Virus record (IMG/VR): IMGVR_UViG_3300033146_004128
Coordinates: 96,001 to 160,000 of that record
Length of the DNA: 64,000 nucleotides
Strand: one strand, 5' to 3'
Origin: a virus
The notes beneath the pieces were generated by a model. The model saw nothing but the letters and a program-made list of their open reading frames with translations. It ran no database searches and was not told the origin of the DNA. Position 1 is the stretch's first letter. Each line of letters starts with the position of its first letter. Below, piece after piece: positions 34,402 through 62,610 of the stretch. The position numbers and the translations under genes are program-made.

Positions 34402-34509
34402 ATGCTTGACGGAGTCTGCAGAGAAAAGATAGAGAAGATGATATTTGCTCACCTCCTCACAAAGTATCTTAAACAGTTGCTACGAGAAGGAGGACACCAT
34501 GTTGGTTGA
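34402..34509 (+). CDS. Small unannotated ORF (35 aa)
   Basis: AAGGGG RBS 5 nt before the ATG. MLDGVCREKIEKMIFAHLLTKYLKQLLREGGHHVG fills the gap and overlaps the next start. Confidence 0.4.
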   Translation: MLDGVCREKIEKMIFAHLLTKYLKQLLREGGHHVG

Positions 34510-35467
34510 TGCACTAAGCGATATAGATATGGCTGTTCTTAAGAGTAAGATAGAAGAGATAGATGGGGCAGCTCACAGACTTGAGAAAGTCGCATCTCTT
34601 CCGTTGGATGACAGAAATGATTTAACGAAGGAAGCGTTTGCTTGGCCTGAGGAAAAATTGTTTCCTATATACTCTCCTGCTCACGCTCTTGTTTCAAGCG
34701 TATACCTTGAAGGGAACGATGATGTTCCCGGATTTGTGAAAGAAGCGTGCGAAGAAGCATGTGCTTTGTTTGGTATGGACGTCCAGATAGGGGCACTTGA
34801 GAAAATAGCATCTACACCAGATGAGCTAGAGGCATCGGATTTCCTAATGCCGGCAGCAAGAAAATTGCCTGTTGTTGATAAGGATACATTCAGAATGTCT
34901 GCAAGCGTACTTGAGAAGGTAGCTTCAGACCTAACTGGTGATGATCTAATCATAGCCAATAGACAACTTGTGAAGAAAGCAAGAGACCTTGGAGAGGATG
35001 TTTCTGACGAAGCATTGTCACTAGGGTTATATGGAACGATTGATGCCATAGGGGCCAGAAGCACGCTTCATGAGCGTACTCTTATTACCGGTGATGAAAG
35101 ATATGAAAAAGTCGCATCAGACATTAGTGGAGACACAGTGTACTCCGTTGAGAAGGTAGCCTCTATAGTTATGGATGTTCTATCCTTAGATGAAGAGCAT
35201 GGGCTTGACAAAACAGCAAAAGAAGCAATTCTTGAGCTAGTTAACCCAGGAGAAGTTTCAGAAGTCTTTGAGATTGGAGCAGAGGAAATTCCTGTAGACA
35301 AAATAGCATCGATTGATGCTGAGGACTGGGTAGATGTACTGCCTAGGTCTATTGTCGAAGGGATGTTTAGTGATGGATATTTAGATACTAGTATCCTGAG
35401 AGAGATTACGGACAATGCTAGCCCCGAAGAGAAAGAGGCTATAGCAATGTTTGTTAATAAAATTTAA
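34499..35467 (+). CDS. Acidic head-associated (internal/scaffold-like) protein with many K-x-A motifs
   Basis: Start refined to ATG 34499 (AAGGAGG RBS). At least 10 hydrophobic-x-K-x-A motifs (LEKVAS x2, LEKIAS, YEKVAS, VEKVAS, VDKIAS, LTKEAF, FVKEAC, LVKKAR, LDKTAK). Confidence 0.65.
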   Translation: MLVDALSDIDMAVLKSKIEEIDGAAHRLEKVASLPLDDRNDLTKEAFAWPEEKLFPIYSPAHALVSSVYLEGNDDVPGFVKEACEEACALFGMDVQIGALEKIASTPDELEASDFLMPAARKLPVVDKDTFRMSASVLEKVASDLTGDDLIIANRQLVKKARDLGEDVSDEALSLGLYGTIDAIGARSTLHERTLITGDERYEKVASDISGDTVYSVEKVASIVMDVLSLDEEHGLDKTAKEAILELVNPGEVSEVFEIGAEEIPVDKIASIDAEDWVDVLPRSIVEGMFSDGYLDTSILREITDNASPEEKEAIAMFVNKI

Positions 35468-40765: not shown

Positions 40766-42202
40766 TTATTGTGTTAATACGACTGATTTTGTCATGCCTA
40801 ATATAAATGCAAGCTCTATTGCCTGCTCTGCAACTGTCTCCGCTACTATGGTTGGATCCAGAGTTACAACTGAAGAGTCAGATCCTAGACTACCATTTAT
40901 AATTTTAGATAGCTCTTCTACCGCTCCATCTATGTTCGATCTGCATCCAGACCCCTGCCCCATATTTGTGTATGCATATGATGCACCTGGAACAACTCCA
41001 CCGCTTAGTGACAACTCAAGAGAGTTTATGCAGTCATCAGCCCTATCCTTTCGCTCCGTAACAGCATTTACTGTGTTCCCGCCAACTATAACTTTTATAA
41101 GCTTTTTCTTGAGTATTGACAATATTGTTTTAAACATATCCCTTTCCTCGTCAGATGAGACAGACCTCATTTTACCCATGTAGTAATCAGCAAGTCTATC
41201 AACATCGTCTTGATTTGACTTGTCCTCACCGGTTATCGTTATCGACTTTCTCTTTACTGATATTCTTGAGATTTTAGTCATCATCTCAGGTGTAACATCA
41301 CATATGTCTATTCCGCTAGACTCTCCAACAACTGTTCCATTTATGGCGGTAGAGATTGCCTCTATGGCAAGTGATGTGTTTATGGCACTACCACCATCTA
41401 TGGCAATAGGCAAAAGATTTATTGACACACCGTGATTTATCGATAGAGCTGACAGTGATGTCATCGCAAACTGAGGTGCAATAATGACTAGATTCTCAAC
41501 TCCTGCATTCACACAGGTGGTAATCAGTTCAACAATGTCATCCTCACCACTAACCTCAGATGTAGACAGTATCACATGCGCATCTTTCAAATCAGAAGTC
41601 CTGCTATCTTTATTGTCATAAAAAATTAAGTCTATGATATTACCAGTGAAGTTTATACCGTCAACAACATCAACTTTTGTAACACCTCTAACCTGTGGGT
41701 CTGCTATAACACCAGATATTCCACTCTCATCTGCTATTTTGAATGCAGATACTATCGCCTCTGCCAATATCTTATCACCGGCAGTTGAGGTCATTGCTAC
41801 AGTCATTGCTTCAGGAGAGTCTACGGTTATATCCCTACTGTTTTTCCTTATGTTGTTCTTAACTGTATCTATGATGTGATCTTTGTGCATGAAGTCTGCA
41901 CTGTTGAAATTAGCAAGTATCTTATTGGCCAGGACAACTGTGGTGGTGGTTCCGTCCCCTGCCTTAGATAGTGTGTTCAGAGAAGCTTCTTGTATCACAC
42001 TTATGATTGCCTGCTCTAGAGGCTCCGTAGATACAAGAGCCCTAATAACAGACACTCCATCTTTTGTTGCAAGAGACGTGTCTCCGTTGGATAGCACCAC
42101 AAATCCACCGTTTGGACCATACGTAGACTCAACAAGAGACGACACCTGTTCCATAACATTTCTCACAAAATCAGTTGAATTTGGACCGGTTGACTTTATC
42201 AT
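40766..42202 (-). CDS. groEL: GroEL-like chaperonin (divergent, shortened, 478 aa)
   Basis: STYGPNG, TKDGVSV, AGDGTTT, VGG...ERKDRADD (D398 equivalent), GGVVPG and LDP motifs. Confidence 0.92.
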   Translation of the reverse strand: MIKSTGPNSTDFVRNVMEQVSSLVESTYGPNGGFVVLSNGDTSLATKDGVSVIRALVSTEPLEQAIISVIQEASLNTLSKAGDGTTTTVVLANKILANFNSADFMHKDHIIDTVKNNIRKNSRDITVDSPEAMTVAMTSTAGDKILAEAIVSAFKIADESGISGVIADPQVRGVTKVDVVDGINFTGNIIDLIFYDNKDSRTSDLKDAHVILSTSEVSGEDDIVELITTCVNAGVENLVIIAPQFAMTSLSALSINHGVSINLLPIAIDGGSAINTSLAIEAISTAINGTVVGESSGIDICDVTPEMMTKISRISVKRKSITITGEDKSNQDDVDRLADYYMGKMRSVSSDEERDMFKTILSILKKKLIKVIVGGNTVNAVTERKDRADDCINSLELSLSGGVVPGASYAYTNMGQGSGCRSNIDGAVEELSKIINGSLGSDSSVVTLDPTIVAETVAEQAIELAFILGMTKSVVLTQ

Positions 42203-42453
42203 TTTAATACCCTCGCAATAATGTCATCTGTAGTTATGACTATGTAGTCTTTATTCTCGTATTCAAGCTCCGTACCTGCATATCTTGCAATAAGAAACTT
42301 GTCTCCTTCCTTTACCCCATCTACTCCACAACTAAGTATCTCCACAGTCAATGGCTTTTCCTTGTTGCTAGATGTTTTTACAACGCCGGCAGAGTTCTTA
42401 TTGTCAACTCCTATCCTGCGAGCAATTATATTGTCTCCGAAAGATTTTATCAT
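42199..42453 (-). CDS. groES: GroES co-chaperonin (84 aa)
   Basis: Start refined to ATG 42453 (AGGAGA RBS). GDNIIARR, mobile loop SAGVV, KEKP, VKEGD, YAGTE and DDII motifs; ATGA overlap with groEL. Confidence 0.92.
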   Translation of the reverse strand: MIKSFGDNIIARRIGVDNKNSAGVVKTSSNKEKPLTVEILSCGVDGVKEGDKFLIARYAGTELEYENKDYIVITTDDIIARVLK

Positions 42454-42533
42454 TATATCTCCTGATATTGTAGTATCAGTAGTATACCCTAGCAAAATTA
42501 GATAATACCTTAATCGTATATATATTATGTGCC

Positions 42534-45500
42534 TTACGTCTTCTTTATATCGGGACCAGGTTTATTTAAAGCATCTCTCACTGCTTCAGTTGCCACGGCA
42601 ATTCTCTCAAGAATTGACTGCGTATTGTCCTTTGACACACCCTTCTCTGTTCTACTTCGACTCATGACGCTTGTGTCCTTAGTTATCTTATTCATGGTTC
42701 TGTTTATATGAAAGTCTTCGCCGACAGGTGGAGTCACATTGAAGTCTGCGCTAGCCAGATGTTTTGGAATCCTTGCCTTGTCCGGACCATCAAGCGCCTT
42801 GCTGTCCACTCCTTTTTTGTTTTTTTCAGAAGTCTCAATGTCAGCATCTGGAGAGCCACCATCTCGTGGAGGAAGCCCAAAAGCAGCCCTGTAGTCTGCC
42901 TTTGCCTTTGTGCCATCTGGGTAATACCCCTCTGCATTCGCAAAAGCCTTAGTTCTTCCAGTCACTACTCCGAACCCATCATCCTTAGGCTCAGGCAACC
43001 CAAACGCTTCCCTATAGTTTCCCATTGCCTTTGTGCCATCTGGGTAATACCCCTCTGCATTCGCAAAAGCCTTAATTCTCCCAATCTCAACCCCAAAATG
43101 ATCACCTTTTTCTTTACTCATTTGTCCAGGACTTATAAATCTAGCTTGAGACTCAGCTGACCCTATAACCTCTTTGTCCCCAGTATTTATTTCATAATTA
43201 TCATTAGGATGATCCTTTATCCACTCTTTACTATCTATGGAGGGACCCATACTTGCCCTGAGGGCTTTTTTTGCCAAAGTCCTGATATCTTTATTATGTT
43301 CTACTTCAGTGTTCGATACATTTTTGTGTCCAGAACTACCTTCTCCTGACCCTATCCCATAACTATCAACTTCACTTCTTTTTGATTTTGATCTTCTTTG
43401 AATATACTTAGGTGTAAATTTCTCCCCTTTATATATTACTCTATCCTTGCTCTCGTATTTAGTCCCTCTAGGCTTAGCATTCTTCTTCGCAACATCAAGC
43501 TTATCGCTAGCAACTTTCATTTCTGCAGCCAATTCTGCAGTTCTTTTAGCATCTTCAGCTTTCCGTGCGCCAATACTAGTTCCAGACTCATCTATATCAT
43601 TCTTGTCACCAAGCATGGCCATCTTCAGCTTTCGTACATCCTTTCCTTTTCCATATCCTCCAGCTGTGTACGCATCTTTTTCCTCAGAATATCCACCATC
43701 TTTTTTATCATTATAGAACGATATCGACAATCTATCTTTTTTCGCTGTTACTTTGACTCCTCCTGCATATTGCCCTTGCAAATCTCTCTGTATAGACTCA
43801 CCAAATTTCTTTGCCTCTTTAGCATCCTTGAACTGAGCAATGGACATATCAAAGGCTTTGCCCTTTTTGTGTCTCTCCTCATTTTGCTCAGATCCTCCAG
43901 TGAGTAGCAGTGTCTTTCCTTTTTTGGAAAGAGCATTTTTAGTTCTCAATAGCATATCGCTAGTGTCATCTTTTAATCCATCTAGACTAGTTCCTCCAAA
44001 TGTAAGAACTGCACCCTTTCTAACACCTCCTACTTTACTCATATCCCTTCTTCCTGAAGGCATAGGGACATTATCTTTTGGGTCAGCCATGCCCATATTT
44101 TTTGGAGGCTTGGCTTGATGGTCAACGGATGTGTTTTTTACTGTCTGGGTTGGCTTTGATGCAGGAGTTGGTCTATCTTTATCATTATTCATGGTAGCCC
44201 ATTCATTCTTCTTGCTATTGCCTACATGATCAACCTCAACCTTCTTTCCTTTAGTGGTATGCCTGTCAGAAGTTTTTATTGCGTCCTTCTTATCAGTATC
44301 GCTAGCTACAGGTTCTGCTACTGGAGTCTTTTTGACTGTTGCCCTCTTTGGCGGCACAACTGGCTCATCAGAAGCATCCCTAGATACAGGAGTCATAGTT
44401 TTAGCAGAATCTTCTTTTATCTTCTGAGATAAGCTGTATACTTTATTCACAGATGCAGTAAAGTCAGTTTCGGCTATGCTTTTTGTGCTTGATCCCTTCC
44501 CCTTATCTGTATTCCTGACCAAATCTGCCATTTTTGAATTTATTTGATTCAATATGTTTTCTATAGGGTTCTGCCCCTTATTTACAGACCTGTCCTCTAT
44601 TGTTTTTGCTGTTATGCCAGATGATCCTCTGTCTGCGAATGACTGAGTAAGCAATTCTTCTCCAGTAACCCCTGCCTCCTTCTTCTTGTCCCCACCTGTT
44701 ATATTCTCCATGGCCCTAGACAGAACTCTTTCAGTCATGGTCATGTCTTCATATTTCTTTTCTCCAATAGCATCATACTTTTTACGTATCTCTGCGCCAG
44801 ACATTCTTGTCATCTTACCTTTTTCCCCAACGTGAAATAGTCCAGCAACACCCATTGCACTAGCCTGTTTCTCTGAAGAAAGCAGGTTCTCACCGAATAG
44901 ATGCCTATTTCTTGCATTTTCCAAGCCTATTGTCACTGCTCCTATAGTACTATTTTTGAAATCTTTCTCTGAAATATCTCCAAGTGCTTTTATTCCTGAT
45001 AGACTGTCTACCATTTTCTTCTGTTCGGTTGAAAGTTTTTCATACTCATCTTGAGTATCGTTCAGTATCCCTTGGTCTGCAAGCTTAGAATTACTCTTAC
45101 CATGTATATTCTTTGCTCTCTTCTTGGCAAGAGAGAATATTTTTGTTCTGTCTTCTTCTCCAAGCTGTGTCCATTTTACAGCAGCAACAGATGCGTCACC
45201 ATCCTTAAGTATATCTGCTGCTATATTTCCTTTTGTACCCTTCATGCTGTCTAGATACAGAGAACTTATATAGTCGGAGTCCATCGCATCACCTACAGCA
45301 AGATTGTCTGCATTTTTTGTAATAGTTCTACCAACAGCCTTAGACGTATCTTGGGCTTCCTGGTCATCCATATGAAGTGATCTCATAAGATTCTTATATG
45401 TAGGCTTTTCGTATGTCTTTGTCATATCTATACCAAGAGTCTCTACTTCTTGCTTTGTTGCATTTCCGTTATACCCTATGTTAAATGCAGCTGCGGCAGC

Positions 45501-48275
45501 TCTTATATCAACACCTGCATGCTTTAATGACTCGGCCTTGATGTGCGCCGCTTCAAAACTATCAACGGCTCCTTTGTGTGTACCCTTCCCATACAGTAGG
45601 GCATCCGAAAGGAATCCTTTTGCCTGAGATCCAAGTTTTGACAATTTAGGGTCGGAAGCTATAAATTTCTCTATTCCCTCTTTTTCACCATACTTAGAAG
45701 TACTTTCTTGCAATTTTCCATAGTCAATATCTTTTTCGGCATCTGCAGCTGATATGATAGCCTTCTGTGCTTTTGTTGCTGATTTTACCATTGTTGTCGT
45801 GTCTCGTATCACGTCCTCGCTTTTTGCATTTATTTTATCTCCCATTCCCCAAAAATCATAGAACTTATTCGCCATACCATCATGCTCTCCTCTTTCTGCG
45901 CTGGCAGCTTGATACATGGAGAATACTGCTGCCTCTCGTGTTGGTTTGAACTTCTTATTGTTTAGCGTTGCTCCTGCATCCTTGAAGTCATTATCCTTTA
46001 GTGTAGAGAAGAATAGGTCCATGTTTGACACAACCTCATCATTTCCAGCCTGTATCTTTTCTGAGAATGTTTCAAAGTCAATCTTGCCAGATCTGTAGTC
46101 CGCAAACGCATTTGTGTTTTTTGTCCTGGCATTACTCTCTGCTCTTTGCATATCGTTTGAGGACTTAGCCATAGCCGCAACCTCTTTATGATCAACAGTC
46201 GCAAAGCCAAACGCCCCGACAGCTTCCGTTAGCGCATCCCATCCAACTGCTTCAAATGCACCAAGCATTCCTTTCCCTATATCCTGTCTGTTTATTCCTG
46301 CACGTGTGCCTAGACTCTGGAGATTCTTTCTCTCGTCCTCATACTGAGTACTTAGCCCAGGTAGATAGTTCGTGAACGATGCCTCTCTGTTTCCAGTGCC
46401 AAGCATATCTTTGTACCCATCATCACTAGCAGAATCCATTTTAGCATTTACTTTTGCGAACTCAAGGCTATTGCCTGCTATTCCGGTAGCTGCCTTTTTC
46501 CCAGCCTCTGTAACGGTTCCTACACTTACTCCATTGGATGTTAGCTTCTTTACATCCTGTAGAAGACCCTCTATAAAACCTCCAAACACTTTTCTTACTG
46601 CGGTAAGTCCTGATTCCCACTGCTTCTCAAATGATCCTGAGTCAATAGCTGCACTACGCTGCTCTAGTTTTTTTGCCTTCTCGACAGATTTCATGACACT
46701 TTCATACCCACCGTTGCCTGCTGCACTAAATATAGCCCTTGTCTTACTTGACAAAGTCATTCCTGAAGCACGGACAAGGTTTCTATCTTGTGTCACTTTA
46801 GCCATATAGCCAATTTGTGTCTTTACTGCATCCCATGAGCCAGAATCGTGAAGTGCCCTAGAGTACCCCTCTGTCATCTTTTTCATTGCTGCAGGATCCT
46901 GCATTAGTATAGAAGCAGTTTCTGTTGTTGTAAGAGCACCGTTCTTGGAGTACGTATCTAATAGTTCTCCTAGGGTAAATTCCCCATTCTTGTGCCCTTT
47001 TTTTACTTTTTCAAATGATTTTTGTATTAGTGAGTCCTGATCTTCACTACTCATTTTCTCGAACGCTTTTCTTCCTCCTGCTGACGTGTATGCCTCCCCT
47101 ATAGCAAGAGCACCATACACATTCTCACTAGCAGCCATATTCTTACTGAATGCAAGTTGAGCCGTAGGACCAGATGCGAACGTATTATACGCCTTGTTTG
47201 CCTGGTCGATAGCTTGTATCTGCTCTTCGTTGTTACCTAGTTTTTTCTGAAGTTCAGGGTCAAGTTTTATCATATCCATCATTGTTGATTTAGACATAAC
47301 AGCATCAGCCTTAGATAGCACATTTATTGGATCGTTCGCTTCAGCTTCCTGAAGAAGGTTCCCCATTAGATTGCTGGCATCCATTCCGTACTTTCTTGCT
47401 GCACTGCCTACTGACCTTGACGCTTCCACAGCAGCTCCGTTTGACAGACCTGTTCCATTTAGTCTTCGAAGTGTATCCATTATCTCTGAGATGTCAGATC
47501 CTCCAAATATCTCAACAAGAGATTTTGCTACGCCTTTAAGGTCTTTTATCTTAGATGTTATGTCTCCGGTTCCTTGTGCTCCTGATATGTTTCCGGTCTT
47601 AATTCCCTCATCCATTATTCGTGTAATCTCCCCCACGCTGAAATATGGATCCTCCGTTGCGGACTCTTCCATAGATGAGTACACCTTCTTGCTGTCTGAT
47701 ATACTATATCCGAAGTCAGCACCATATGGACTATCAGTATTTGCAAGCCCCATAAGGCTTCTATGTGTCTCAAGTTGCCTACCAGCCCTTTGAGAATACA
47801 TTTCTCCTAAGCTTCCGCCTATGCCTCCTCCGGCCATACTACCCACCATACTACCAACGAGAGCACCAATACCAGGAATAGGTATCATCGCCTGCCCAAT
47901 CATTGCTCCAAGGGCAGACCCAGCAAATCCTCCGCCTATCTCCATTCCTGTTGATGCCATTGCGGCAGTAGACCCCTCTCTAAGGTTTGCCATATGGGCT
48001 TGGAATGTTGCTCCGTGTGCTCCTGCTGGTTTTGATAGTAGGTTTGTTCTTCCCATCATGAATGAAGATGTAAAAGGGTTGTCATACATTGGAGAATAAG
48101 GAGATGACCACGTACTAGACTGTCCACCCCCATACATATTCTGCATGTTGAAGTTGCTGGATGGATTCATGTACCCCTGTGGTCCACCAGACATCATGCC
48201 TGGATTAGCAGTAAATCCCTGCCAAGGGCTCATGTGCATATAGCCATTACTTTGTTGCATGTACGGATCTAGCAT
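42534..48275 (-). CDS. Tape measure protein (1913 aa) with a C-terminal extension
   Basis: Longest ORF; A/G/S/K/M-rich helical composition; N-proximal glycine-zipper (GGGFAGSALGAMIG...GALVGSMVGSMAGGGIGG); next to chaperone and baseplate genes. Confidence 0.75.
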   Translation of the reverse strand: MLDPYMQQSNGYMHMSPWQGFTANPGMMSGGPQGYMNPSSNFNMQNMYGGGQSSTWSSPYSPMYDNPFTSSFMMGRTNLLSKPAGAHGATFQAHMANLREGSTAAMASTGMEIGGGFAGSALGAMIGQAMIPIPGIGALVGSMVGSMAGGGIGGSLGEMYSQRAGRQLETHRSLMGLANTDSPYGADFGYSISDSKKVYSSMEESATEDPYFSVGEITRIMDEGIKTGNISGAQGTGDITSKIKDLKGVAKSLVEIFGGSDISEIMDTLRRLNGTGLSNGAAVEASRSVGSAARKYGMDASNLMGNLLQEAEANDPINVLSKADAVMSKSTMMDMIKLDPELQKKLGNNEEQIQAIDQANKAYNTFASGPTAQLAFSKNMAASENVYGALAIGEAYTSAGGRKAFEKMSSEDQDSLIQKSFEKVKKGHKNGEFTLGELLDTYSKNGALTTTETASILMQDPAAMKKMTEGYSRALHDSGSWDAVKTQIGYMAKVTQDRNLVRASGMTLSSKTRAIFSAAGNGGYESVMKSVEKAKKLEQRSAAIDSGSFEKQWESGLTAVRKVFGGFIEGLLQDVKKLTSNGVSVGTVTEAGKKAATGIAGNSLEFAKVNAKMDSASDDGYKDMLGTGNREASFTNYLPGLSTQYEDERKNLQSLGTRAGINRQDIGKGMLGAFEAVGWDALTEAVGAFGFATVDHKEVAAMAKSSNDMQRAESNARTKNTNAFADYRSGKIDFETFSEKIQAGNDEVVSNMDLFFSTLKDNDFKDAGATLNNKKFKPTREAAVFSMYQAASAERGEHDGMANKFYDFWGMGDKINAKSEDVIRDTTTMVKSATKAQKAIISAADAEKDIDYGKLQESTSKYGEKEGIEKFIASDPKLSKLGSQAKGFLSDALLYGKGTHKGAVDSFEAAHIKAESLKHAGVDIRAAAAAFNIGYNGNATKQEVETLGIDMTKTYEKPTYKNLMRSLHMDDQEAQDTSKAVGRTITKNADNLAVGDAMDSDYISSLYLDSMKGTKGNIAADILKDGDASVAAVKWTQLGEEDRTKIFSLAKKRAKNIHGKSNSKLADQGILNDTQDEYEKLSTEQKKMVDSLSGIKALGDISEKDFKNSTIGAVTIGLENARNRHLFGENLLSSEKQASAMGVAGLFHVGEKGKMTRMSGAEIRKKYDAIGEKKYEDMTMTERVLSRAMENITGGDKKKEAGVTGEELLTQSFADRGSSGITAKTIEDRSVNKGQNPIENILNQINSKMADLVRNTDKGKGSSTKSIAETDFTASVNKVYSLSQKIKEDSAKTMTPVSRDASDEPVVPPKRATVKKTPVAEPVASDTDKKDAIKTSDRHTTKGKKVEVDHVGNSKKNEWATMNNDKDRPTPASKPTQTVKNTSVDHQAKPPKNMGMADPKDNVPMPSGRRDMSKVGGVRKGAVLTFGGTSLDGLKDDTSDMLLRTKNALSKKGKTLLLTGGSEQNEERHKKGKAFDMSIAQFKDAKEAKKFGESIQRDLQGQYAGGVKVTAKKDRLSISFYNDKKDGGYSEEKDAYTAGGYGKGKDVRKLKMAMLGDKNDIDESGTSIGARKAEDAKRTAELAAEMKVASDKLDVAKKNAKPRGTKYESKDRVIYKGEKFTPKYIQRRSKSKRSEVDSYGIGSGEGSSGHKNVSNTEVEHNKDIRTLAKKALRASMGPSIDSKEWIKDHPNDNYEINTGDKEVIGSAESQARFISPGQMSKEKGDHFGVEIGRIKAFANAEGYYPDGTKAMGNYREAFGLPEPKDDGFGVVTGRTKAFANAEGYYPDGTKAKADYRAAFGLPPRDGGSPDADIETSEKNKKGVDSKALDGPDKARIPKHLASADFNVTPPVGEDFHINRTMNKITKDTSVMSRSRTEKGVSKDNTQSILERIAVATEAVRDALNKPGPDIKKT
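42902..43074. repeat. Perfect 50-bp direct repeat within the TMP 3' region (42902-42951 and 43025-43074)
   Basis: ttgcctttgtgccatctgggtaatacccctctgcattcgcaaaagcctta occurs twice, 123 nt apart; it encodes KAFANAEGYYPDGTKA twice. Confidence 0.95.
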
Positions 48276-50269: not shown

Positions 50270-51442
50270 CTATGGGCGTAATGTCATGTTTTGATATTTG
50301 TTCATTGCAGGACCTACTTCAAGTGCCGTTGCTCCAGCTACTCCAAGAGTACCAACAGCACCTAATGTAGACCCACCATTTACGAAGCCTTTTGCTCCAC
50401 CGCTTACAATATTCAAAGGGTTTCCAGTTAGAGCCCCTTTTATACTTCCTGAGGCTGCACCAAATACTCTTCCCGGTAATTTTGCTGTCCCCATTATAAC
50501 ACTAGAACCCTTATTCCATCCATGGGCTGCACCAGATAATGGATTTTTTCCTGTAAGTAAGCTCTTTGTTCCTTGTATTGCGGCACCACCTATTTTTCCG
50601 GGAAGCTTGGTGGCCTTATACCCAAGCTTCCCTAGTTTAAAACCCGTCCTTGCAATCCCTCCGAGGAGGCTAGTTAGAAATGCTATCTTTTCAAGGTCGT
50701 CATATGATGATGCTTCTTTAACAAGAGTCTTTGCTTCCTGGATGTCTCCCAGGGTAACAATTATTCGTTCTGCTGCTTCTGTACGTATAGCGTCCATGTC
50801 GACAGATGCTACCTTTAGCAGGGTTGTCTCTGCATCATTTGAGACAGCTACCATCTCAGGTATTATACTTCCCATCCCATTGTCTATAACCATTCCGATT
50901 ATTGATCTAAGCTCGGATGCGTCATTTGCTATCTTTGTGAGATCTTCTATCTCTGCACCAAACATATCATTGAGCATGGCAATAGCTCTAACCTTATCGG
51001 TCTTGAACGACTCCTCTTCTCTGTCTGCTTTCTTGTCAAGCTCTGAGTCTATGATATGCTCTGCAACTTTTCTAAATGTAGATTCTGATCCACCATTTGA
51101 TGATCTGGCACTTATCGGTCTGTGAGCTCCTATTACGAACATCGAATCATCTACCATTGCTATCTTGTCTATAGTCTTTGTATTATCAGATGCTGTCTTC
51201 TCTACAGTTGGGTCTTCTACCGACCTAGTCACATGAGAGTCTTTTATCTCTGGCTCAAGAACATTAAAGTCGATATTTCCGTCAGTATCTCTTCCTTCTA
51301 GCCTACTTAAAAAGAATTGCTTATTGACTTCCCTAGCGAGTGTCGTCTTGTGCACATCATCTAAAGAGGATGCTTCCTTGGCAAACTCCCCATACGGATC
51401 CTCCGCTGATGCTATCTGAATAGCTAGTGTTTTATAGTCCAT
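50270..51442 (-). CDS. Head-associated precursor: acidic K-x-A-rich N-region plus a 136-aa cationic Gly-rich C-terminal segment
   Basis: Start refined to ATG 51442 (AAGGA RBS). Nine hydrophobic-x-K-x-A motifs, the last (LEKIA) followed by FLTSLLGGIARTGFKLGKLG... Confidence 0.7.
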   Translation of the reverse strand: MDYKTLAIQIASAEDPYGEFAKEASSLDDVHKTTLAREVNKQFFLSRLEGRDTDGNIDFNVLEPEIKDSHVTRSVEDPTVEKTASDNTKTIDKIAMVDDSMFVIGAHRPISARSSNGGSESTFRKVAEHIIDSELDKKADREEESFKTDKVRAIAMLNDMFGAEIEDLTKIANDASELRSIIGMVIDNGMGSIIPEMVAVSNDAETTLLKVASVDMDAIRTEAAERIIVTLGDIQEAKTLVKEASSYDDLEKIAFLTSLLGGIARTGFKLGKLGYKATKLPGKIGGAAIQGTKSLLTGKNPLSGAAHGWNKGSSVIMGTAKLPGRVFGAASGSIKGALTGNPLNIVSGGAKGFVNGGSTLGAVGTLGVAGATALEVGPAMNKYQNMTLRP

Positions 51443-51473
51443 TTTATATTCCTTGTTTTTTATGGCCCTCAGT

Positions 51474-51494
51474 CCTCCCATCCAAGATGAGAGG
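51474..51494 (-). other. Intergenic GC-rich stem-loop
   Basis: Minus strand CCTCTCATC-TTG-GATGGGAGG (9 bp, one G-U); followed by an A-tract, not a U-tract. Confidence 0.55.
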
Positions 51495-51501
51495 GTCAGG
51501 G

Positions 51502-51762
51502 TCAATAGTCCTTAGGGACCAATGGCTCTGATTCGTCCATTTTTTGCTTGCCGATATAAGCACCACCAGCACCTACGGCTGCAGTACCTCTAACGAAAGC
51601 TCGTTGGTCTTTAGCAGCTTTTACGCTCTTCTTACCAACCTTTATATCATTTGCATTTCCCGACTTCTTGGCAGCTTTGAGTGCCTTCTTTGCCTTCTTC
51701 ACATTTTTACCTGTGAAAGACTTTGTAGCAAATCCAAGAATGCTAGCTTCTTTGTTTAACAT
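51502..51762 (-). CDS. Small cationic protein (86 aa) with an N-terminal LNKEA motif
   Basis: AAAGGAG RBS; 15 K and 2 R... counted as 17 K + 2 R versus 6 D/E after the KEA motif; C-proximal GTAAVGAGGAYIG hydrophobic stretch. Confidence 0.75.
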   Translation of the reverse strand: MLNKEASILGFATKSFTGKNVKKAKKALKAAKKSGNANDIKVGKKSVKAAKDQRAFVRGTAAVGAGGAYIGKQKMDESEPLVPKDY

Positions 51763-51786
51763 GACTGCTCCTTTGTGCAGAGGGGA

Positions 51787-53241
51787 TTACCCTCTACCTT
51801 GGAATGAAGCCATCCCGGCTGCACCAGCGCCAGCAAGACCAAGTCCACCTGCAACTGTTGCTGCTCTAGATACATTTCTGCTCTTCTTGGCAGACTGTAG
51901 TTTGCCCTTAGCTTTGCTTACAGCTTTCTTCTTACCGAAGATTTTCTTAGATGCTTTTGCAACACCTTTTTCTGCTTCAGCTACGCCTTTTCCGCTAACG
52001 TTCTTAGCATATGTCTTAGCTCCAGACTTTACTGCTTCTTTTGCTTTACCGAATGCTTTTTTTGCCGTATCTATCTTTCCTGCTTCTTTCTCTACTTCCA
52101 ACATTAGGTCTGTAAGAGATGCACCCTCGATATCTGAAAGATACTCAAACGCTTCAGCAATTTTGTCAATAGACTCTTCGTCAAGACCATCAAACTCAGA
52201 TGCAACTTTATCTTGTGCTTCCTCATCTTCGGCAGATGCAAAGTTCTCAGCAAATTCGATTGCATTAACTGCATCCAATCCTGCTTCATCTAGGAAGTCA
52301 TATGCTTCCGCAACTTTGTCCCATACTTCGTCTGTAGCAGATACTTCTTCTGAAGCCTGTTTATTAAGAGCTGCTGCTGTTCCGCCTACTGCTAGTGTAC
52401 CACCGGCAATACCTGCTCCAATACGAGCATTCTTTGTATCTTTCTTAGCTTGTGCTACTGCTTCAAGTTTCTTCTTTTTACCAAAGAACCCTTTTTTAGC
52501 ATTTGCTTCTGCTGCGCTTAGGTTTTTACCGGTAACATCTCCATACAATTTTTTAACTGCACCTTTTGCTTTTCCGAAACCTTCTCCGACAGCTTTCTTT
52601 GCAGCTTCCATCTTGCCTGCTTCTTTGTCAAACTCTGCCATAAGGCTTGTTAATGACTGACCTTCAATATCAGAAAGGTATTCAAAGGCTTCAGCAATCT
52701 TATCGATTGACTCTTCATCAAGTCCGTCAAAGTCAGATGCTACTTTATCTTGAGCATCTTCGTCTTCTGCGCTTGAGTACTCTTCTGCAAACTCCATAGA
52801 TGTAACAGGATCTAAACCAGACTCACTAAGGTACTCGTGTGCTTCTGCAACTTTTTCCCATACTTCGTCTGTAGCAGATATGCCCATTGCTTCTTCAGCT
52901 TCTTCAGCTTGCTTGTCAAGTAGTCCAGAGATGATCTGTAGATCAAGTTCTTCAAGTCCAGCCTCTTTCACCATTTCAAGTGCATCCGCTTCTGTGAAGT
53001 CTTCTTCTCCGTAGTATCTCTCATATGCAGATACTGCCTCCAGGAAAGCACTAGGCTCCTGATCTTCAGCTACCTTGATAAGATTTTCCTGAGTATAAAC
53101 ATTTCCATATACGAGGTTATGCATAACTCTAGCGTCATTTTCCGATACTCCATCTGCCTCAGCCATCTTAATTAGGCCATCTACGTTGTCGCTACCTTCG
53201 ATTACACCGAGATAGTTGATTGTTAGTTCTGATAATGTCAT
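51787..53241 (-). CDS. Polyprotein-like virion protein: acidic K-x-A spacers alternating with cationic amphipathic segments (484 aa)
   Basis: AAAGGA RBS and its own promoter; two 179-aa repeat units; all 12 lysines in the acidic parts sit in K-x-A. Confidence 0.75.
   Translation of the reverse strand: MTLSELTINYLGVIEGSDNVDGLIKMAEADGVSENDARVMHNLVYGNVYTQENLIKVAEDQEPSAFLEAVSAYERYYGEEDFTEADALEMVKEAGLEELDLQIISGLLDKQAEEAEEAMGISATDEVWEKVAEAHEYLSESGLDPVTSMEFAEEYSSAEDEDAQDKVASDFDGLDEESIDKIAEAFEYLSDIEGQSLTSLMAEFDKEAGKMEAAKKAVGEGFGKAKGAVKKLYGDVTGKNLSAAEANAKKGFFGKKKKLEAVAQAKKDTKNARIGAGIAGGTLAVGGTAAALNKQASEEVSATDEVWDKVAEAYDFLDEAGLDAVNAIEFAENFASAEDEEAQDKVASEFDGLDEESIDKIAEAFEYLSDIEGASLTDLMLEVEKEAGKIDTAKKAFGKAKEAVKSGAKTYAKNVSGKGVAEAEKGVAKASKKIFGKKKAVSKAKGKLQSAKKSRNVSRAATVAGGLGLAGAGAAGMASFQGRG
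51790..52878. repeat. Tandem intragenic duplication, period 537 bp (179 aa)
   Basis: SATDEVW[ED]KVAEA...AQDKVAS[DE]FDGLDEESIDKIAEAFEYLSDIEG...KEAGK occurs at aa 122 and aa 301; DNA cttcgtctgtagcagat is present in both copies. Confidence 0.92.
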
Positions 53242-53373: not shown

Positions 53374-54216
53374 TTACGCTTCTGAAGAAGACTTCAAGTA
53401 TGTGATTCTACAAGTTTTGCCATCATATTCACCAGCCGTTCCCGGCAATAGTGTCCACTCTTTAGCGTTTGTACCAGGAACGATATCAACAACATCCCAA
53501 ACACCACTAGATACTTCTACTTCTGCAGTTCCACCAACAACATCTCCTACAGGAGTGTATGTAGACGAGAACCCGTCTCCAGTAATAGCAAGTCCGCTAT
53601 CAACTTTCATCTCTGTTGATTGTGCTGCTGCATCAACCAATGCTTTCAATGTCTTAACTGATTCTGCAGAGGCAGGAACAGCTGATCCACCAGTAGTCAA
53701 GTCGTCAACAATGTCAGCATACTTAACGAATGGAGTTACGTCAATGTTCTGTGCAAGGATCTGCAATAGAGCCCAACCTGAACCATCAATATAGATATAT
53801 GCCGCTGCAGTACCTTCGTCATCGCCAAGAGAAGAATCTCCTGTTGTGTCGATTACGTATGCAATCAATGAATCGTACGGGTTAGAATAGTTATCTCTCT
53901 CAGAGATATCAGAAACAACAACAGAGTCATCAACTGATGCCACATATGCCTTCAACTTATCTACTGACCACGTTACGGTATTTCCTGTATCTGCAGTATC
54001 ATCAATGATTCCGCTAACAGAACTGCTGATCGCAGAGATTTGAGATGTAAGATCTGTAACAATCTCGTTAACCGCTGCTGTAGATGCAACTGTTGAAACA
54101 CTGTTCGAGTTCTCAACGTCAACCTTAGCCGCCATGATAGCTGCAATGTTAATCTTTCCTGCCAATAATCCTGTAAGACCGTCGATGGATCCTACTCTTC
54201 TTTTTCTTAATGCCAT
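53374..54216 (-). CDS. Probable high-copy fibre/decoration protein (280 aa)
   Basis: AAGGA RBS and a dedicated near-consensus promoter. IVDDLTTGGSAVPASAESVKTLK is a motif typical of phage fibre shafts. ATC/ATT-type codons. Confidence 0.55.
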   Translation of the reverse strand: MALRKRRVGSIDGLTGLLAGKINIAAIMAAKVDVENSNSVSTVASTAAVNEIVTDLTSQISAISSSVSGIIDDTADTGNTVTWSVDKLKAYVASVDDSVVVSDISERDNYSNPYDSLIAYVIDTTGDSSLGDDEGTAAAYIYIDGSGWALLQILAQNIDVTPFVKYADIVDDLTTGGSAVPASAESVKTLKALVDAAAQSTEMKVDSGLAITGDGFSSTYTPVGDVVGGTAEVEVSSGVWDVVDIVPGTNAKEWTLLPGTAGEYDGKTCRITYLKSSSEA

Positions 54217-59016: not shown

Positions 59017-62000
59017 TTATCCTTCCTCTATAAGTAGTGTTGACACAACTTTTCCATCAATCTCTTCTGTTCCCCATGTAAGGGTTGGGTTATTTACAGG
59101 TGTTGCTCCCAGTGGTATCCCTCCTCCTCCACTAGCTAGTCCAGCCATATACTCAATTTTTGATATGCTATTACTGATATAGGTTCCCAGGTCAGAAGAC
59201 GTGTGTATTGCTCTTATGCTAGTAACGATATCATCCTTCCACGTGAAAGAGTTATGAGCTCCTATGTGCCCTACCCATGAAACGAAGACAGAGTAAGGAA
59301 GTATCTCATCAGCAAACTCATCCGCCTCAAAAATTAGTCCGATGATCTTGTTGAAGTTTTCTTCCCAATCATCATATGCGATACTGTCTTTGTTCTCTAT
59401 GAAGTACAATAGAACTTTCAAGAAAACAGTTATCAGCGGAGAGTATATACTTTCATCCTGATCTGCCTCTCCTGAATATACACTAGACTCAAGCATCATT
59501 GAAGCAAGCTCATACGGAGATAGTGAATCAAAACTCTGGTAGAACGACTGTAGGTATACTCTAGCACTGTTTATGGACACGATGCTTCCATCATCAGCTA
59601 TCTCTATGGCATCAGTAAGTAGAGCTAGTACTGACTCATTATATTTCTTGGAATACCCATTAGGTGAGTGATTCAATGCTAGGTCTACATTCGTAGAAAA
59701 GAAACCTGTTCTTACAAGCTCTCCATACAGCCTATCTTCTATCCCAGTATCATCAGGTATTTGTATGCTAATGACTTTTCCAAGGGACACATCTGTGCCT
59801 TCCATGAGCCATTGCCCATCATTGAAGGTTGCACGTGATGGAGACGGAGGATCATATAGTGAGGACTCAGGAAACGTAAGTGCATGTATTGAACCTGTAA
59901 GATGAAAAATAAGCTGACCTTCGGTAACTGTGGTCCCAAGAGCGTAGTTTTTTGACTGAAGAGCAAGGGCTTGGTTTCTCATGTTCCTGAAATACAACTT
60001 TGACATTGTTACTGTTGCATCTATGGGTATGCCACCTATTCCGTAGTTATTCTCAGGTGCAGCCTCCGGCTCATTAACGCCAAAAACAAAGTCTGCAAAT
60101 TTATCATCACTATAGAACCCAGACAATTTTGATGCATCCACTACGTATGCTCCTGCCAAGGCTATAAACCTTTGTTCCCGCAGTCCATCATCTATTTGCA
60201 TTGCAAGCTCCATTAGGTACTTGTATACTTCATCTACATCATTTTCACTTAGTTGTGGAAGAAGCGCATAATTAATAAACCCTTCAAGAACTTCATTTCC
60301 CAGTATTCTTCGTATCTCCTCTATATCATCAGCGTTAAATGTATCTAGGCGAATTGGCATGGTCGCCACATCTCCAACTTGGTTATATGACTCAGTGTCC
60401 TCTTTGAGTAAGCTGTATAGGGACTCATACTTTTGACCAACATTTGGTATTCTATTTTCAAGAGCAGTGGAAAATGATGCAGTATCATCTTGCAGTACCA
60501 GCCTCTCGTAGTCTCTTGGAGATATAGTTAAGACAGCAACACCTATTGTAGACTTTGCAGCAATACTATTTGCTCCCGCCTCAACAAAGAACCATCTATT
60601 GGACTTTGCTTGCGGAGTAGCATACATTGGATATATTGCTTCAGGGAAGTTTCTTCTTGCCGGTGATACTAAATCAGAAGCGGATGCTATCCTACTCTCT
60701 TCAGATCTGACTATAGTTTCAAACCTTGGTGCAACAGTAGACACGGGTGGAACAAAATTGTTTGTATTGTCTACTAGTGTAGGAACTTGTGGGATCATCA
60801 TATACGAATCAGAGAATGCCATCCCTGAAGACACTATCTTGTTTATATCCTCATTATTTAGAGGTTCACGAATATTTGTAATTATTCCACCATCTTTTTT
60901 AAGCTGTGGCAATGATTCACTTCCTATTGTTGGAAGACCTCTAAGATCATATCTTAAAAGAGTATCTCTGTCGATAGGAGTAACATAGTTGAACTCACCA
61001 GACGTAGAGACAGTGAATGATGTCCCTGGTGACGAAGCTACAAGGGTTATGAGTGATGAAGAGTATGACGCTATAACATCTGACTGATCAGCGTTTATTC
61101 CAGCAGTAAGAGCCTGTGCTAGGGTTGCTTCGTCTACTATGTACTCATTTCCCTGAAGGCTAGGATCTATCTCTACTCTTGTGCTATTTATCTCTATGTA
61201 ATATGTATTATCTGGGTTAAATTTGATTATCTCAACTGTACCCTTCTGAGCTGTAGCTGCAGAAAAATCAGACACATGAATATACTCATACTTCTCTGCT
61301 TCTAGTGTTGACACAGTTACTGTCTGGTCAGAAGATGCTTCAATAATAATCTTCGAAGCACCTATCTCAAGTTGTACACTATCTGCTGTGGAGTATTCAT
61401 CTCCAGTATCAAACCCAGGCATAACAACAACTCTTATGTCTACATCTTGGAACGCATTAACAAGATCTCGTATGTCTGCTATTGTTGGGTATACAGGGTC
61501 AAATCCATCATGCTCAAATGTTATCAATATCTTCTCTGGATTTGAAGCGTCCTGCTCTATCGTTAGGTCGCCTTCCTCTGTAGGCACAATCATCTCAACT
61601 TCATATGACAGGGAGTCGTCAGAATTCTTTGCATACCACCCGAATACTTTGTCTCCTGCTCCATTTTCGAACACAGTTGACCAATATCCAGTGTCTAGAG
61701 ACACAGACAGATTTGCATCTGCTCCAAGTTCGTCAGATAATCCAGTTGCTATGTCTTCTGCAGTGTCGGGCGATGATGATGAATATGTATAGTCAACCCC
61801 ACCAACATTTACAGTATAATCATTCTCGTAGTTTAAAATAACTGTTAGCTCATCACGGTATAGAGATGCACTTGCTGATGCCTCTATCTCTTGGTAGTCG
61901 GCTATCTTTGACCCTGAACCTTTTAGCTCACCGTCCGAAATATCCTGCTCTATAAATGACACGTCTGCATATGATATAACTATGTTTTTTAGAGAATTAT

Positions 62001-62610
62001 CTATTGTCAGCTTTATAATATCAACATTGTCTGATCCTATATTTGGGACGTATCTAGTAATAAACGAGTCTATGTTTAATATTCCATCAGGGTCAGACAT
62101 GCTTGCTGACTCTATCTCTATGAATGGGACTGTAACATCACTACTGCTTTTTGGCATAGCCGAGCTAGATGATGATATTTCTGCTTTTGTTACAGTGTTT
62201 GACGAGTTAAGGTACCCACCAGTAATTGCGCTCTGCTCAACACTTGAAACACTTATATAAGCATTCTCCATCTCCTGTTCTATTTTAGATATTGTCCACG
62301 CTGGAGACCCGGTTTCTCCATCTACGTATTTTTCTGCAACTATGGTAAGATTGCTACCAATGGTCCTGAACTCATCGCCATCTGTAAATTGGTTTGAGTC
62401 GATCAATTCAAGTACATTTTCGACCCTCGAAGTAATTATCTTTTCTTTCATAGTGCTTACAGCCTCCATCATATAGTTTCTTTTATCACTAGTTATTTTG
62501 TTAATCAAGTTGTCGTACTCGCCAATAAGCGAGTCGACTGCATCATCTACTGATCCCAGAGAATAGCCGGAAGCTAAATTCTCCAGTAGCCAATCATTAT
62601 CGATAGCCAT
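59017..62610 (-). CDS. Large acidic virion protein (1197 aa) with two related beta-domains
   Basis: GAGGA RBS, TAATG coupling. YTVNVGGVDYTYSS...TAEDIATGLSDEL and YYIEINSTRVE...DEATLAQALTAGINA...ITLVASSPGTSFTVS resemble modules in tail sheath/fibre proteins. Confidence 0.55.
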   Translation of the reverse strand: MAIDNDWLLENLASGYSLGSVDDAVDSLIGEYDNLINKITSDKRNYMMEAVSTMKEKIITSRVENVLELIDSNQFTDGDEFRTIGSNLTIVAEKYVDGETGSPAWTISKIEQEMENAYISVSSVEQSAITGGYLNSSNTVTKAEISSSSSAMPKSSSDVTVPFIEIESASMSDPDGILNIDSFITRYVPNIGSDNVDIIKLTIDNSLKNIVISYADVSFIEQDISDGELKGSGSKIADYQEIEASASASLYRDELTVILNYENDYTVNVGGVDYTYSSSSPDTAEDIATGLSDELGADANLSVSLDTGYWSTVFENGAGDKVFGWYAKNSDDSLSYEVEMIVPTEEGDLTIEQDASNPEKILITFEHDGFDPVYPTIADIRDLVNAFQDVDIRVVVMPGFDTGDEYSTADSVQLEIGASKIIIEASSDQTVTVSTLEAEKYEYIHVSDFSAATAQKGTVEIIKFNPDNTYYIEINSTRVEIDPSLQGNEYIVDEATLAQALTAGINADQSDVIASYSSSLITLVASSPGTSFTVSTSGEFNYVTPIDRDTLLRYDLRGLPTIGSESLPQLKKDGGIITNIREPLNNEDINKIVSSGMAFSDSYMMIPQVPTLVDNTNNFVPPVSTVAPRFETIVRSEESRIASASDLVSPARRNFPEAIYPMYATPQAKSNRWFFVEAGANSIAAKSTIGVAVLTISPRDYERLVLQDDTASFSTALENRIPNVGQKYESLYSLLKEDTESYNQVGDVATMPIRLDTFNADDIEEIRRILGNEVLEGFINYALLPQLSENDVDEVYKYLMELAMQIDDGLREQRFIALAGAYVVDASKLSGFYSDDKFADFVFGVNEPEAAPENNYGIGGIPIDATVTMSKLYFRNMRNQALALQSKNYALGTTVTEGQLIFHLTGSIHALTFPESSLYDPPSPSRATFNDGQWLMEGTDVSLGKVISIQIPDDTGIEDRLYGELVRTGFFSTNVDLALNHSPNGYSKKYNESVLALLTDAIEIADDGSIVSINSARVYLQSFYQSFDSLSPYELASMMLESSVYSGEADQDESIYSPLITVFLKVLLYFIENKDSIAYDDWEENFNKIIGLIFEADEFADEILPYSVFVSWVGHIGAHNSFTWKDDIVTSIRAIHTSSDLGTYISNSISKIEYMAGLASGGGGIPLGATPVNNPTLTWGTEEIDGKVVSTLLIEEG

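Follow-up and report, generated by a model that had tools for sequence, protein, structure and literature searches.

A three-gene cluster encoding charge-segregated proteins

We analyzed a stretch of 64,000 nucleotides (here called the window) that runs from base 96001 to base 160000 in the genome of an uncultured phage from IMG/VR (record IMGVR_UViG_3300033146_004128; complete at 187,664 bp, with direct terminal repeats), and we focused on a cluster of three genes at window positions 50270 to 53241 that encode proteins of 484, 86 and 390 amino acids (aa) (Table 1). Pfam/PHROG families are absent for nearly all proteins of the window, and Pfam/PHROG scans of the three proteins, of their cationic sub-segments and of eight neighbors gave nothing usable. 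A likeness of the cationic blocks to CsbD-type stress proteins was also considered and was rejected, as there was no match even at an E value of ≤10.

The 484-aa protein consists of an N-terminal domain followed by two tandem units, in each of which a helical acidic domain precedes a basic module rich in Gly and Ala. The alternation of acidic and basic blocks is due to an internal tandem duplication, in which residues ~120-296 correspond to residues ~299-484 and each copy comprises an acidic domain of ~90 aa and a basic module of ~90 aa; single-unit forms of 290 to 380 aa were found in relatives. The charge counts that a preliminary description had reported for the 484-aa and 390-aa proteins were all reproduced. 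The acidic block at aa 297-387 holds 31 Asp/Glu and 4 Lys/Arg residues, and the cationic blocks hold 19 Lys/Arg and 6 Asp/Glu (aa 209-296) and 24 Lys/Arg and 4 Asp/Glu (aa 388-484). The net-charge range of the 484-aa protein was reached by 0 of 2000 shuffles, and hypergeometric P values for the charge segregation were 8e-12, 1e-9 and 6e-10.

Both cationic blocks of this protein start directly after a Lys-Glu-Ala triplet (K206-E-A208 and K385-E-A387). The acidic region that precedes the first of them (aa 1-208) contains eight sites of the form hydrophobic-x-Lys-x-Ala (hereafter K-x-A), within which all eight of its lysines fall, and this region is predicted to be a propeptide that is cut at several places. 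Module 1 (aa 209-296) contains no canonical site; it ends in a Gly/Ala tail followed by LNKQA↓S (the arrow marks the presumed cut), and its sequence and length are poorly conserved across homologues. We predict that module 1 is a first retained product, that acidic repeat 2 is a spacer cut into pieces of 15 to 36 aa, and that module 2 (aa 388-484) is a second retained product.

The 86-aa gene encodes the cationic module by itself, preceded by a six-residue leader (MLNKEA) and without any acidic spacer; the predicted product is aa 7-86 (8.4 kDa). The family of the 86-aa protein could be aligned by hhalign with cationic module 2 of the 484-aa family (probability 89%, E value of 2.3e-6), and the two have the motif [ST]-G-K-[NG]-[VL] in common. 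Homologues of the 86-aa protein in contigs L006 and L008 have no leader and start, with M-S.. or M-A.., where the predicted product starts, with in-frame stops upstream, which favors cutting after Ala. The 390-aa protein has an acidic, helical N-terminal part of 254 aa with 8 to 9 K-x-A sites, followed by a basic, Gly-rich tail. These C-terminal 136 aa, with 15 Lys/Arg residues and 1 Asp/Glu residue, begin after LEKIA (A254) and are predicted to be retained product 4. The observation of the preliminary description that the cationic blocks follow a KEA or KIA motif was borne out in all three proteins. Taken alone, a charge statistic in 30-aa windows did not reach significance for the two shorter proteins (P 0.25 for the 390-aa and P 0.13 for the 86-aa protein).

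With the family alignments, AlphaFold2 (AF2) modeled the acidic repeats of the 484-aa protein as confident units of four to five helices (predicted local distance difference test [pLDDT] score of about 90). Confidence was low for the basic modules, which came out as helical hairpins, and the Gly/Ala tails had no structure in the model; module 2 appeared as a helical hairpin plus Gly/Ala tail. In the 390-aa protein, aa 119-250 were modeled with confidence as a helical domain and the tail (aa 257-390) as disordered. Foldseek searches of viral and PDB libraries with both AF2 models returned generic helical matches, none at an E value of ≤0.001 (E values of ≥0.07, probability of ≤0.66), and wide VIA-align searches with both models reached Z scores of ≤7.2, a level that helical models attain by noise. 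Profiles of the 484-aa family, of three neighbor families and of the protease described below had no match among PDB sequences. The ESM Atlas yielded poor models for the 484-aa protein and for a 463-aa protein (pLDDT 0.46 and 0.29, respectively) and no meaningful neighbors.

Two potential RNA hairpins lie between the genes of the cluster. The stem-loop GGTAGAGGG-TAAT-CCCCTCTGC (window 51777-51798, minus strand) overlaps the stop codon of the 484-aa gene and lies just before the Shine-Dalgarno sequence of the 86-aa gene, and contigs L006, L007 and L008 have equivalent hairpins at this position. The other hairpin, which is imperfect, lies past the 86-aa gene and ahead of the 390-aa gene (window about 51455-51505). 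As both lack a T-run, they do not qualify as classical terminators, but they may influence mRNA stability or relative expression levels.

The K-x-A motif in this genome and its relatives

In its wider context, the motif reads hydrophobic-x-K-x-A-(S/G/E/A). The form hydrophobic-x-K-x-A-[SGE] was observed 51 times in the genome, with 20 occurrences expected, and the excess is confined to a few proteins: the 484-aa protein (11 observed, 0.68 expected), the 390-aa protein (5 and 0.28), an acidic 340-aa protein (6 and 0.14) and an 802-aa protein (5 and 0.26). BLAST among all proteins of the genome revealed no paralogy among the motif-bearing proteins, and homology of the 390-aa family to the 484-aa family was unsupported (hhalign probability 7.5%).

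In the acidic regions of the 484-aa protein, 12/12 lysines fall within K-x-A. Among its 24 homologues, 9 of the 20 invariant columns are the Lys or Ala of a site (K25, A27, K130, A132, A168, K181, A183, K206 and A208), and the residue between them varies. The same is seen in the 390-aa family (21 homologues), where 6/20 invariant columns are a site Lys or Ala (K22, K82, A84, K210, A212 and A254). The preliminary description had tied its proposal to the presence of K-x-A at the acidic/basic boundaries of homologues, and there the motif is retained: D-K-E-A is invariant in 24/24 homologues of the 484-aa protein, and the Lys and Ala of L-E-K-I-A↓F are conserved in 20 to 21 of the 21 homologues of the 390-aa protein, A254 being invariant.

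The motif is also present in the N-terminal arm of the major capsid protein (FVKEA↓AE at aa 24-30), and this ties K-x-A to head maturation. The prohead protease (432 aa), which is 43% identical to gp222 of phage Arash, has the site MIKTA↓G at aa 27 and a further one, FQKVA↓S, immediately past its catalytic domain. Six near-identical [LYV]-[ED]-K-[VI]-A-S sites lie in the acidic 340-aa protein, which on these features would be a protease substrate of the scaffold type and is our best candidate for the scaffold. A tape-measure-like protein of 1,913 aa encoded downstream of the cluster has no conserved K-x-A site; the motif is thus selective and not a property of the whole proteome.

A second cluster with the same ingredients lies directly upstream of the portal gene. 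It encodes proteins of 358 aa (net charge, +41), 101 aa (net charge, +19; starting MVVEKQA↓S) and 321 aa (net charge, +38), in which basic stretches and Gly/Ala-rich segments are separated by K-x-A sites. At least six genes of this genome encode the module of basic segment and Gly/Ala tail, and it is found again in the tandem polyproteins of relatives. The second cluster is followed by the gene for the 802-aa multi-site protein, the C terminus of which resembles Arash gp218.

Sites occur in register in head genes of two cultured relatives, Salmonella phage Arash and Vibrio phage D69. Arash is a myovirus with a 95-nm head, and its particles hold a multisubunit RNA polymerase (PMC10585845). Its capsid protein carries GLVKEA↓GA, aligned with the site in the window capsid protein, and its protease carries LTKQA↓A and LEKVA↓N. 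In phage D69, the aligned capsid segment reads GLTKEA↓GA, and the protease has LEKSA↓A and LQKVA↓S. Arash gp220, gp223 and gp225 contain 9, 7 and 6 sites, respectively, if the residue that follows the Ala may also be A or D; under a stricter definition of the motif, Arash has 43 sites, compared to 15 expected (113 kb examined). An acidic 269-aa protein of D69 has 9 sites.

Individual members of the cluster could also be matched. Arash gp220 has acidic multi-site parts followed by MNKEA↓FIGS.. and a Gly/Lys-rich tail, and it aligned with the 390-aa family with its sites in register (hhalign probability 56%, E value of 1e-4); it is likely, judging by this alignment, to be the counterpart of the 390-aa protein. 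A 311-aa protein of D69 has the same plan as gp220 (..ILKEA↓FVS..). Gly/Ala-rich stretches after K-x-A are found in Arash gp221 and gp224 and in a 179-aa protein of D69. The 86-aa protein is mirrored by a 102-aa protein of D69 (net charge, +20) with the leader MFKSA↓S and a Gly/Ala tail. In both phages, the counterparts of the cluster lie in the head gene block, next to the protease and capsid genes. A search of the whole Arash genome with the profile of the 484-aa family gave no match, and homology of this family to Arash gp223 was unsupported (hhalign probability 6%).

Beyond these phages, blastn/tblastn searches of the region against 50,697 phage records produced no match, and a profile search of 1.84 billion representative proteins retrieved 43 clusters only. 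The remote members start M-[ILV]-T-L-E-K-[LI]-A↓G and consist of an acidic domain, [LIV]-K-E-A, a basic stretch and a Gly/Ala tail. The idea of a polyprotein, put forward in the preliminary description, gained from a 695-aa relative (L013:160-2247, Logan contig SRR26329235_35317) encoded two genes before a related large terminase, which consists of five to six tandem units of L-E-K-x-A plus basic plus Gly/Ala segments with almost no acidic spacers. A neighboring 208-aa protein on the same contig starts MSLIKIA↓N and has Gly/Ala-rich segments at its end.

Proposed prohead-core precursors and the predicted fate of their basic modules

Composition, the enrichment, conservation and distribution of the motif, the prohead protease and the synteny in relatives were observed directly. 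Our preferred account of them, which we hold to be probable though well short of certain, is that the three genes encode prohead-core precursors that are substrates of the phage's own head-maturation protease and that give rise to four basic products kept with the DNA. The proposal that the precursors are cut by the maturation protease at K-x-A, which was already part of the preliminary description, is the most likely one on the comparative evidence. We infer incorporation into the head, cutting and the exact bond that is cut, retention, ejection, and activity on DNA or membranes.

We envisage the following sequence of events. A precursor would enter the DNA-free prohead via its acidic, helical, sequence-conserved N-terminal part (in the case of the 86-aa protein, via its six-residue leader), which would double as counter-charge for the very basic C-terminal module. 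The protease would then cut after the Ala of hydrophobic-x-Lys-x-Ala sites. The acidic parts, with 8 + 4 sites in the 484-aa protein and about 8 in the 390-aa protein, would be reduced to pieces of 10 to 85 residues, mostly 15 to 60, which would leave the head. Four site-free basic products would stay behind, namely, aa 209-296 and 388-484 of the 484-aa protein, aa 7-86 of the 86-aa protein and aa 255-390 of the 390-aa protein; cutting at all canonical sites would give them masses of 8.4 to 13.3 kDa and isoelectric points (pI) of 10.2 to 11.0. Incoming DNA would take over from the acidic partner as polyanion. The products would probably be ejected with the DNA, and the Gly/Ala-rich tails may help their passage through, or insertion into, the host envelope. 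As to the role of the products, they may neutralize DNA charge, aid passage through the tail or act on a membrane.

The preliminary description knew of no account of such a phage polyprotein system, but this scheme has close precedents: packaging as precursors followed by cutting by the maturation protease is the known scheme of T4 and of SPN3US/phiKZ (PMC9026906, PMC10052503). The internal proteins of T4 are basic, of about 8, 10 and 20 kDa, with leaders of 10 to 19 residues that end in the motif of the gp21 protease; they stay in the head and are ejected, while the acidic proteins gp22, gp67 and gp68 are cut to fragments that leave it (PMC9026906). The likeness to T4 IPI, IPII and IPIII and the T4 core would lie in small basic products stored with DNA, leaders that end in the motif, and acidic helical core proteins that are cut many times, and it lies likewise in the use of one motif by capsid protein, scaffold, protease and cargo, which is known here from sequence. 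The two differ in that the motif here is hydrophobic-x-K-x-A, cut presumably after Ala, whereas that of T4 is L/I-x-E, and there is no homology. They also differ in that the cargo and the acidic scaffold-like part are fused here in one polypeptide, in one case twice in tandem, and in that the cargo has Gly/Ala-rich tails.

In SPN3US and phiKZ, the maturation protease cuts propeptides of 111 to 254 aa at several copies of its motif, while the C-terminal part is kept and later ejected; SPN3US propeptides leave the head, and the SPN3US protease gp245 removes its own C-terminal piece (PMC10052503). The proteins described here would resemble SPN3US gp53/gp54 and the ejection or inner-body proteins of phiKZ and 201phi2-1 in having multi-cut N-terminal propeptides, a retained C terminus and genes that lie outside a single head block. 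The predicted removal of its own C terminus by the protease and a virion RNA polymerase (reported for Arash) would be further points of likeness to the giant phages. Their motif, however, is A/S/G-x-E and their retained parts are larger and folded, while the modules here are basic, Gly/Ala rich and of 8 to 13 kDa, and no homology was detected.

More remote parallels exist among eukaryotic viruses. Adenovirus pVII and pX/mu are basic, DNA-associated precursors that are trimmed within the particle by the maturation protease, but adenovirus is a eukaryotic virus with an unrelated cysteine protease and other sites, and its precursors have no acidic multi-site propeptide. The maturation and release sites of herpesvirus assemblin follow the rule (V/L/I)-x-A↓S, with Ala at the presumed P1 position and often Ser next. 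The prohead proteases of tailed phages share the assemblin fold (PMC9026906). Neither the invariant Lys at two residues ahead of the Ala nor the hydrophobic residue at four residues ahead belongs to the herpesvirus rule. In the literature searched, neither a Lys-x-Ala rule for prohead proteases nor internal head proteins with a glycine zipper came up, which is limited evidence of absence.

The preliminary description had drawn its analogy instead from amphibian magainin and dermaseptin precursors, in which, as here, acidic segments alternate with cationic ones of amphipathic potential, in tandem units, and which have a signal peptide and dibasic sites and are processed in secretory granules. 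That logic did not hold up. Here there is no signal peptide and no dibasic site, the boundaries being K-x-A, and the N termini are not hydrophobic, the windows of highest hydrophobicity lying elsewhere; the predicted products, at 80 to 136 aa (8 to 13 kDa) compared to 20 to 35 aa, are three to five times too long; and the context is a virus particle. We therefore rejected an amphibian-type antimicrobial precursor. Charge neutralization is not general either. The 484-aa and 390-aa precursors do have an acidic spacer, with net charges of -41 and -8, but the 86-aa protein is without one, and the 358-aa and 321-aa proteins have net charges of +41 and +38.

A membrane function can be framed differently, with released cationic Gly/Ala-zipper products that permeabilize the host inner membrane or line a channel through it and acidic spacers that mask them until maturation. 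The type VI secretion system effector Tde1, which is delivered by a contractile, phage-tail-like machine, needs its N-terminal glycine zipper for membrane permeabilization and translocation (PMC10240207), and because of this a membrane role of the products is plausible, if unproven, by analogy. Tde1 and tape-measure proteins share with the tails described here Gly-rich small-xxx-small stretches, and both are tied to contractile injection machines; the neighboring 1,913-aa protein also has a similar Gly-rich stretch. The zipper of Tde1, however, is short, N-terminal and part of an enzyme, whereas the tails here are C-terminal, weakly hydrophobic and part of basic, low-complexity proteins.

The tails themselves give mixed evidence on this point. 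The preliminary description had reported hydrophobic glycine-zipper tails, and Gly/Ala tails are indeed present at aa 274-292 and 460-478 of the 484-aa protein, aa 55-73 of the 86-aa protein and aa 359-377 of the 390-aa protein, but they are weakly hydrophobic. Their Kyte-Doolittle 19-residue means are 0.46 to 1.46 (1.3 to 1.5 for the tails of the 484-aa protein, which have small-xxx-small runs, and 0.46 for that of the 86-aa protein), under the usual transmembrane threshold of 1.6. A strict GxxxG ladder is present solely in the 390-aa tail (G324/328/332/336), and it contains Lys and Arg. As to the amphipathic-looking helix reported to follow KEA, the first 22 to 27 residues of each cationic block have hydrophobic moments of 0.47 to 0.57, modestly above those of shuffles (P 0.004 to 0.07) and in the range of known membrane-active peptides. 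These moments are similar to those of magainin and melittin, which serve for scale only.

We regard permeabilization of, or a channel through, the membrane as unlikely to be the main function. In addition to the weak hydrophobicity of the tails, the products, 80 to 136 aa in length, are modeled mostly as low-confidence helices or disorder, and no compensating acidic part is found in the 86-aa, 358-aa and 321-aa proteins or in the 102-aa protein of D69, while the 484-aa protein is over-compensated. Moreover, the basic parts evolve fast in sequence and length, which fits a bulk-charge role better than a precise pore. There is likewise only a small chance, in our estimation, that the fullest version of this idea is correct, in which, in a contractile-tailed phage, head-stored cationic Gly/Ala-zipper proteins encoded as polyproteins and unmasked by the protease at K-x-A would be fired with or ahead of the DNA into the host inner membrane and would open or line a conduit for the genome and the virion RNA polymerase, the acidic scaffold serving as a removable DNA surrogate and safety catch.

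Formally, the three proteins could also be pure scaffold or core proteins, such that whole polypeptides, including the basic parts, shape the prohead and are then degraded and expelled with nothing functional left. Acidic, helical, multi-site proteins resemble T4 gp22, several such proteins are encoded in this genome, and the basic parts do hold noncanonical K-x-A triplets. The canonical site context, however, is absent from the basic modules, and free-standing small basic genes with a short leader (the 86-aa gene and the gene for the D69 102-aa protein) follow the pattern of retained internal proteins. Furthermore, Arash gp220, gp221 and gp224 appear in the virion mass-spectrometry table of that phage, and the presence there of gp221 and gp224 speaks against complete expulsion; that table is over-inclusive (116 “structural” proteins with implausible coverage values), and the paper and supplements give results at the table level, not the peptide level. 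We consider it very unlikely that the proteins are scaffold and nothing more.

Several results weigh against our preferred account of retained prohead-core products. Within that same Arash table, gp220 is given 95.8% coverage, which, if reliable, would mean that the acidic part is not removed. That the four basic modules contain no canonical site is not significant (0 versus 1.1 expected, P 0.33), nor is the genome-wide excess of sites in the first 30 residues of proteins (10 versus 7.6 expected, P 0.22). PHROG, Pfam, PDB and Foldseek searches showed no similarity in sequence or fold to the internal proteins of T4 or the inner-body proteins of phiKZ. The sites sit inside predicted helices; such a placement is usual for helical scaffold substrates, but in these models it leaves room for a structural role of D/E-K-V/I-A-E/S. 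Finally, the cluster sits outside the head block of this genome, among tail-like genes (those for the 1,913-aa, 1,197-aa and 280-aa proteins), a position that is conserved in six syntenic contigs.

The last two of these points could be accommodated if K-x-A were a structural or binding motif and the proteins belonged to a tail module, for example, as tail-lumen partners or chaperones of the 1,913-aa protein. Foldseek rows to tape-measure and internal virion proteins, weak and nonsignificant, fit such a role, as does a weak resemblance of Arash gp4 both to the 390-aa tail (E value of 0.27) and to the N terminus of the 1,913-aa protein (E value of 7e-5). Nevertheless, three distant genomes have this motif in the capsid N-arm, the protease and scaffold-like proteins, and the tape-measure-like protein lacks a conserved site of its own. 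The counterparts in Arash and D69 and on contig L013 map to head or packaging blocks. That K-x-A is a structural or binding motif of tail-module proteins appears to us very unlikely.

The function of the abundant small internal proteins of T4 has been largely open for 50 years (PMC9026906). If our preferred account of protease-processed prohead-core precursors is correct, this orphan clade would have a second, independent version of the T4 idea, with its own, readily recognizable cleavage code, a fusion of cargo and acidic part and a modular cargo. The K-x-A leader would then be a candidate tag with which foreign proteins could be directed into these capsids, and the K-x-A rule would improve the annotation of the “dark matter” of uncultured phages. 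The cultured relatives Arash (Salmonella) and D69 (Vibrio) make these predictions directly testable.

Genome setting and neighboring genes

Positions of the features discussed are collected in Table 1. The major capsid protein also matches a protein of Vibrio phages D69/D148/D181. The true start of the 340-aa protein may be the ATG at 34499, and the Cpn10/Cpn60 pair is kept at the same position in related contigs.

Table 1. Positions, strands and properties of the three-gene cluster, its predicted segments and other features of the genome (window coordinates unless marked as genome coordinates)
Feature	Position	Strand	Properties
484-aa precursor gene	51787..53241	-	pI 4.5, net charge -41
484-aa protein, acidic N-terminal region, aa 1-208	52618..53241	-	Net charge -47; includes acidic repeat 1 (aa ~119-208)
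484-aa protein, cationic module 1, aa 209-296	52354..52617	-	8.7 kDa, pI 10.2, net charge +13
484-aa protein, acidic repeat 2, aa 297-387	52081..52353	-	Net charge -27; 4/4 lysines in K-x-A sites
484-aa protein, cationic module 2, aa 388-484	51790..52080	-	9.6 kDa, pI 10.8, net charge +20
86-aa basic protein gene	51502..51762	-	Net charge +13
390-aa precursor gene	50270..51442	-	ATG at 51442 with Shine-Dalgarno sequence; precursor net charge -8
390-aa protein, basic tail, aa 255-390	50273..50680	-	13.3 kDa, pI 11.0, net charge +14, 21% Gly
Second cluster	Genome 64556-69302 (window -31444 to -26698; L012:6556-11302)		Directly upstream of portal gene
Portal	Genome 70106-71935		E value of 3.7e-60 to Arash gp204
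Large terminase	30496-32082
Major capsid protein, 325 aa	32936-33913	+	29% identity to annotated Arash gp226 capsid protein
Acidic 340-aa protein	34445-35467	+	Net charge -41; two genes downstream of capsid gene
Cpn10/Cpn60 chaperonin pair	40766-42495	-	Directly downstream of 1,913-aa gene
1,913-aa tape-measure-like protein	42534-48275	-	Downstream of three-gene cluster
280-aa fiber-like protein	53374-54216	-	C-terminal 70 residues 32% identical to C terminus of 200-aa protein
1,197-aa protein	59017-62610	-	Upstream of three-gene cluster; net charge -115; sub-threshold Phage_sheath_1 match (E value of 0.02, 11.5 bits)
Prohead protease, 432 aa	Genome 167147-168445 (L011:7147-8445)	-	phrog_18299 head maturation protease, E value of 6.5e-13

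The prohead protease has a Cys-x-x-Cys ... Cys-x-His cluster within or just past its catalytic domain that may bind zinc. It also has a C-terminal extension of ~220 residues beyond FQKVA↓S. Arash gp222 and a 471-aa protein of D69 are laid out alike.

The N terminus of the 1,913-aa protein is a low-complexity region rich in Gln, Asn, Met and Gly, followed by a long, Gly-rich hydrophobic stretch at aa ~113-165, and near its C terminus there is a tandem repeat of ~36 residues (FG[VE][EV].GR[IT]KAFANAEGYYPDGTKA...). A stretch that reads S-E-x5-R-H-x-K-G-K-A-F-D resembles a LAS/M15-type peptidase motif and is a candidate for one; Pfam gave no match. Arash gp4, to which this protein is weakly similar, is an abundant virion protein.

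The genome was searched for PAAR, Baseplate_J and Phage_sheath_1, and the single result was the sub-threshold sheath match of the 1,197-aa protein. A homologue of this protein in contig L003 bears PKD-type domains, and the 1,197-aa protein may be a decorated tail sheath. The 280-aa protein has its distal domain in common with the 200-aa protein, which is encoded in the fiber-gene region (genome 85393-85995, plus strand); a homologue has a weak Phage_fiber_rpt match, and the 280-aa protein is probably fiber-like, with a shared distal domain.

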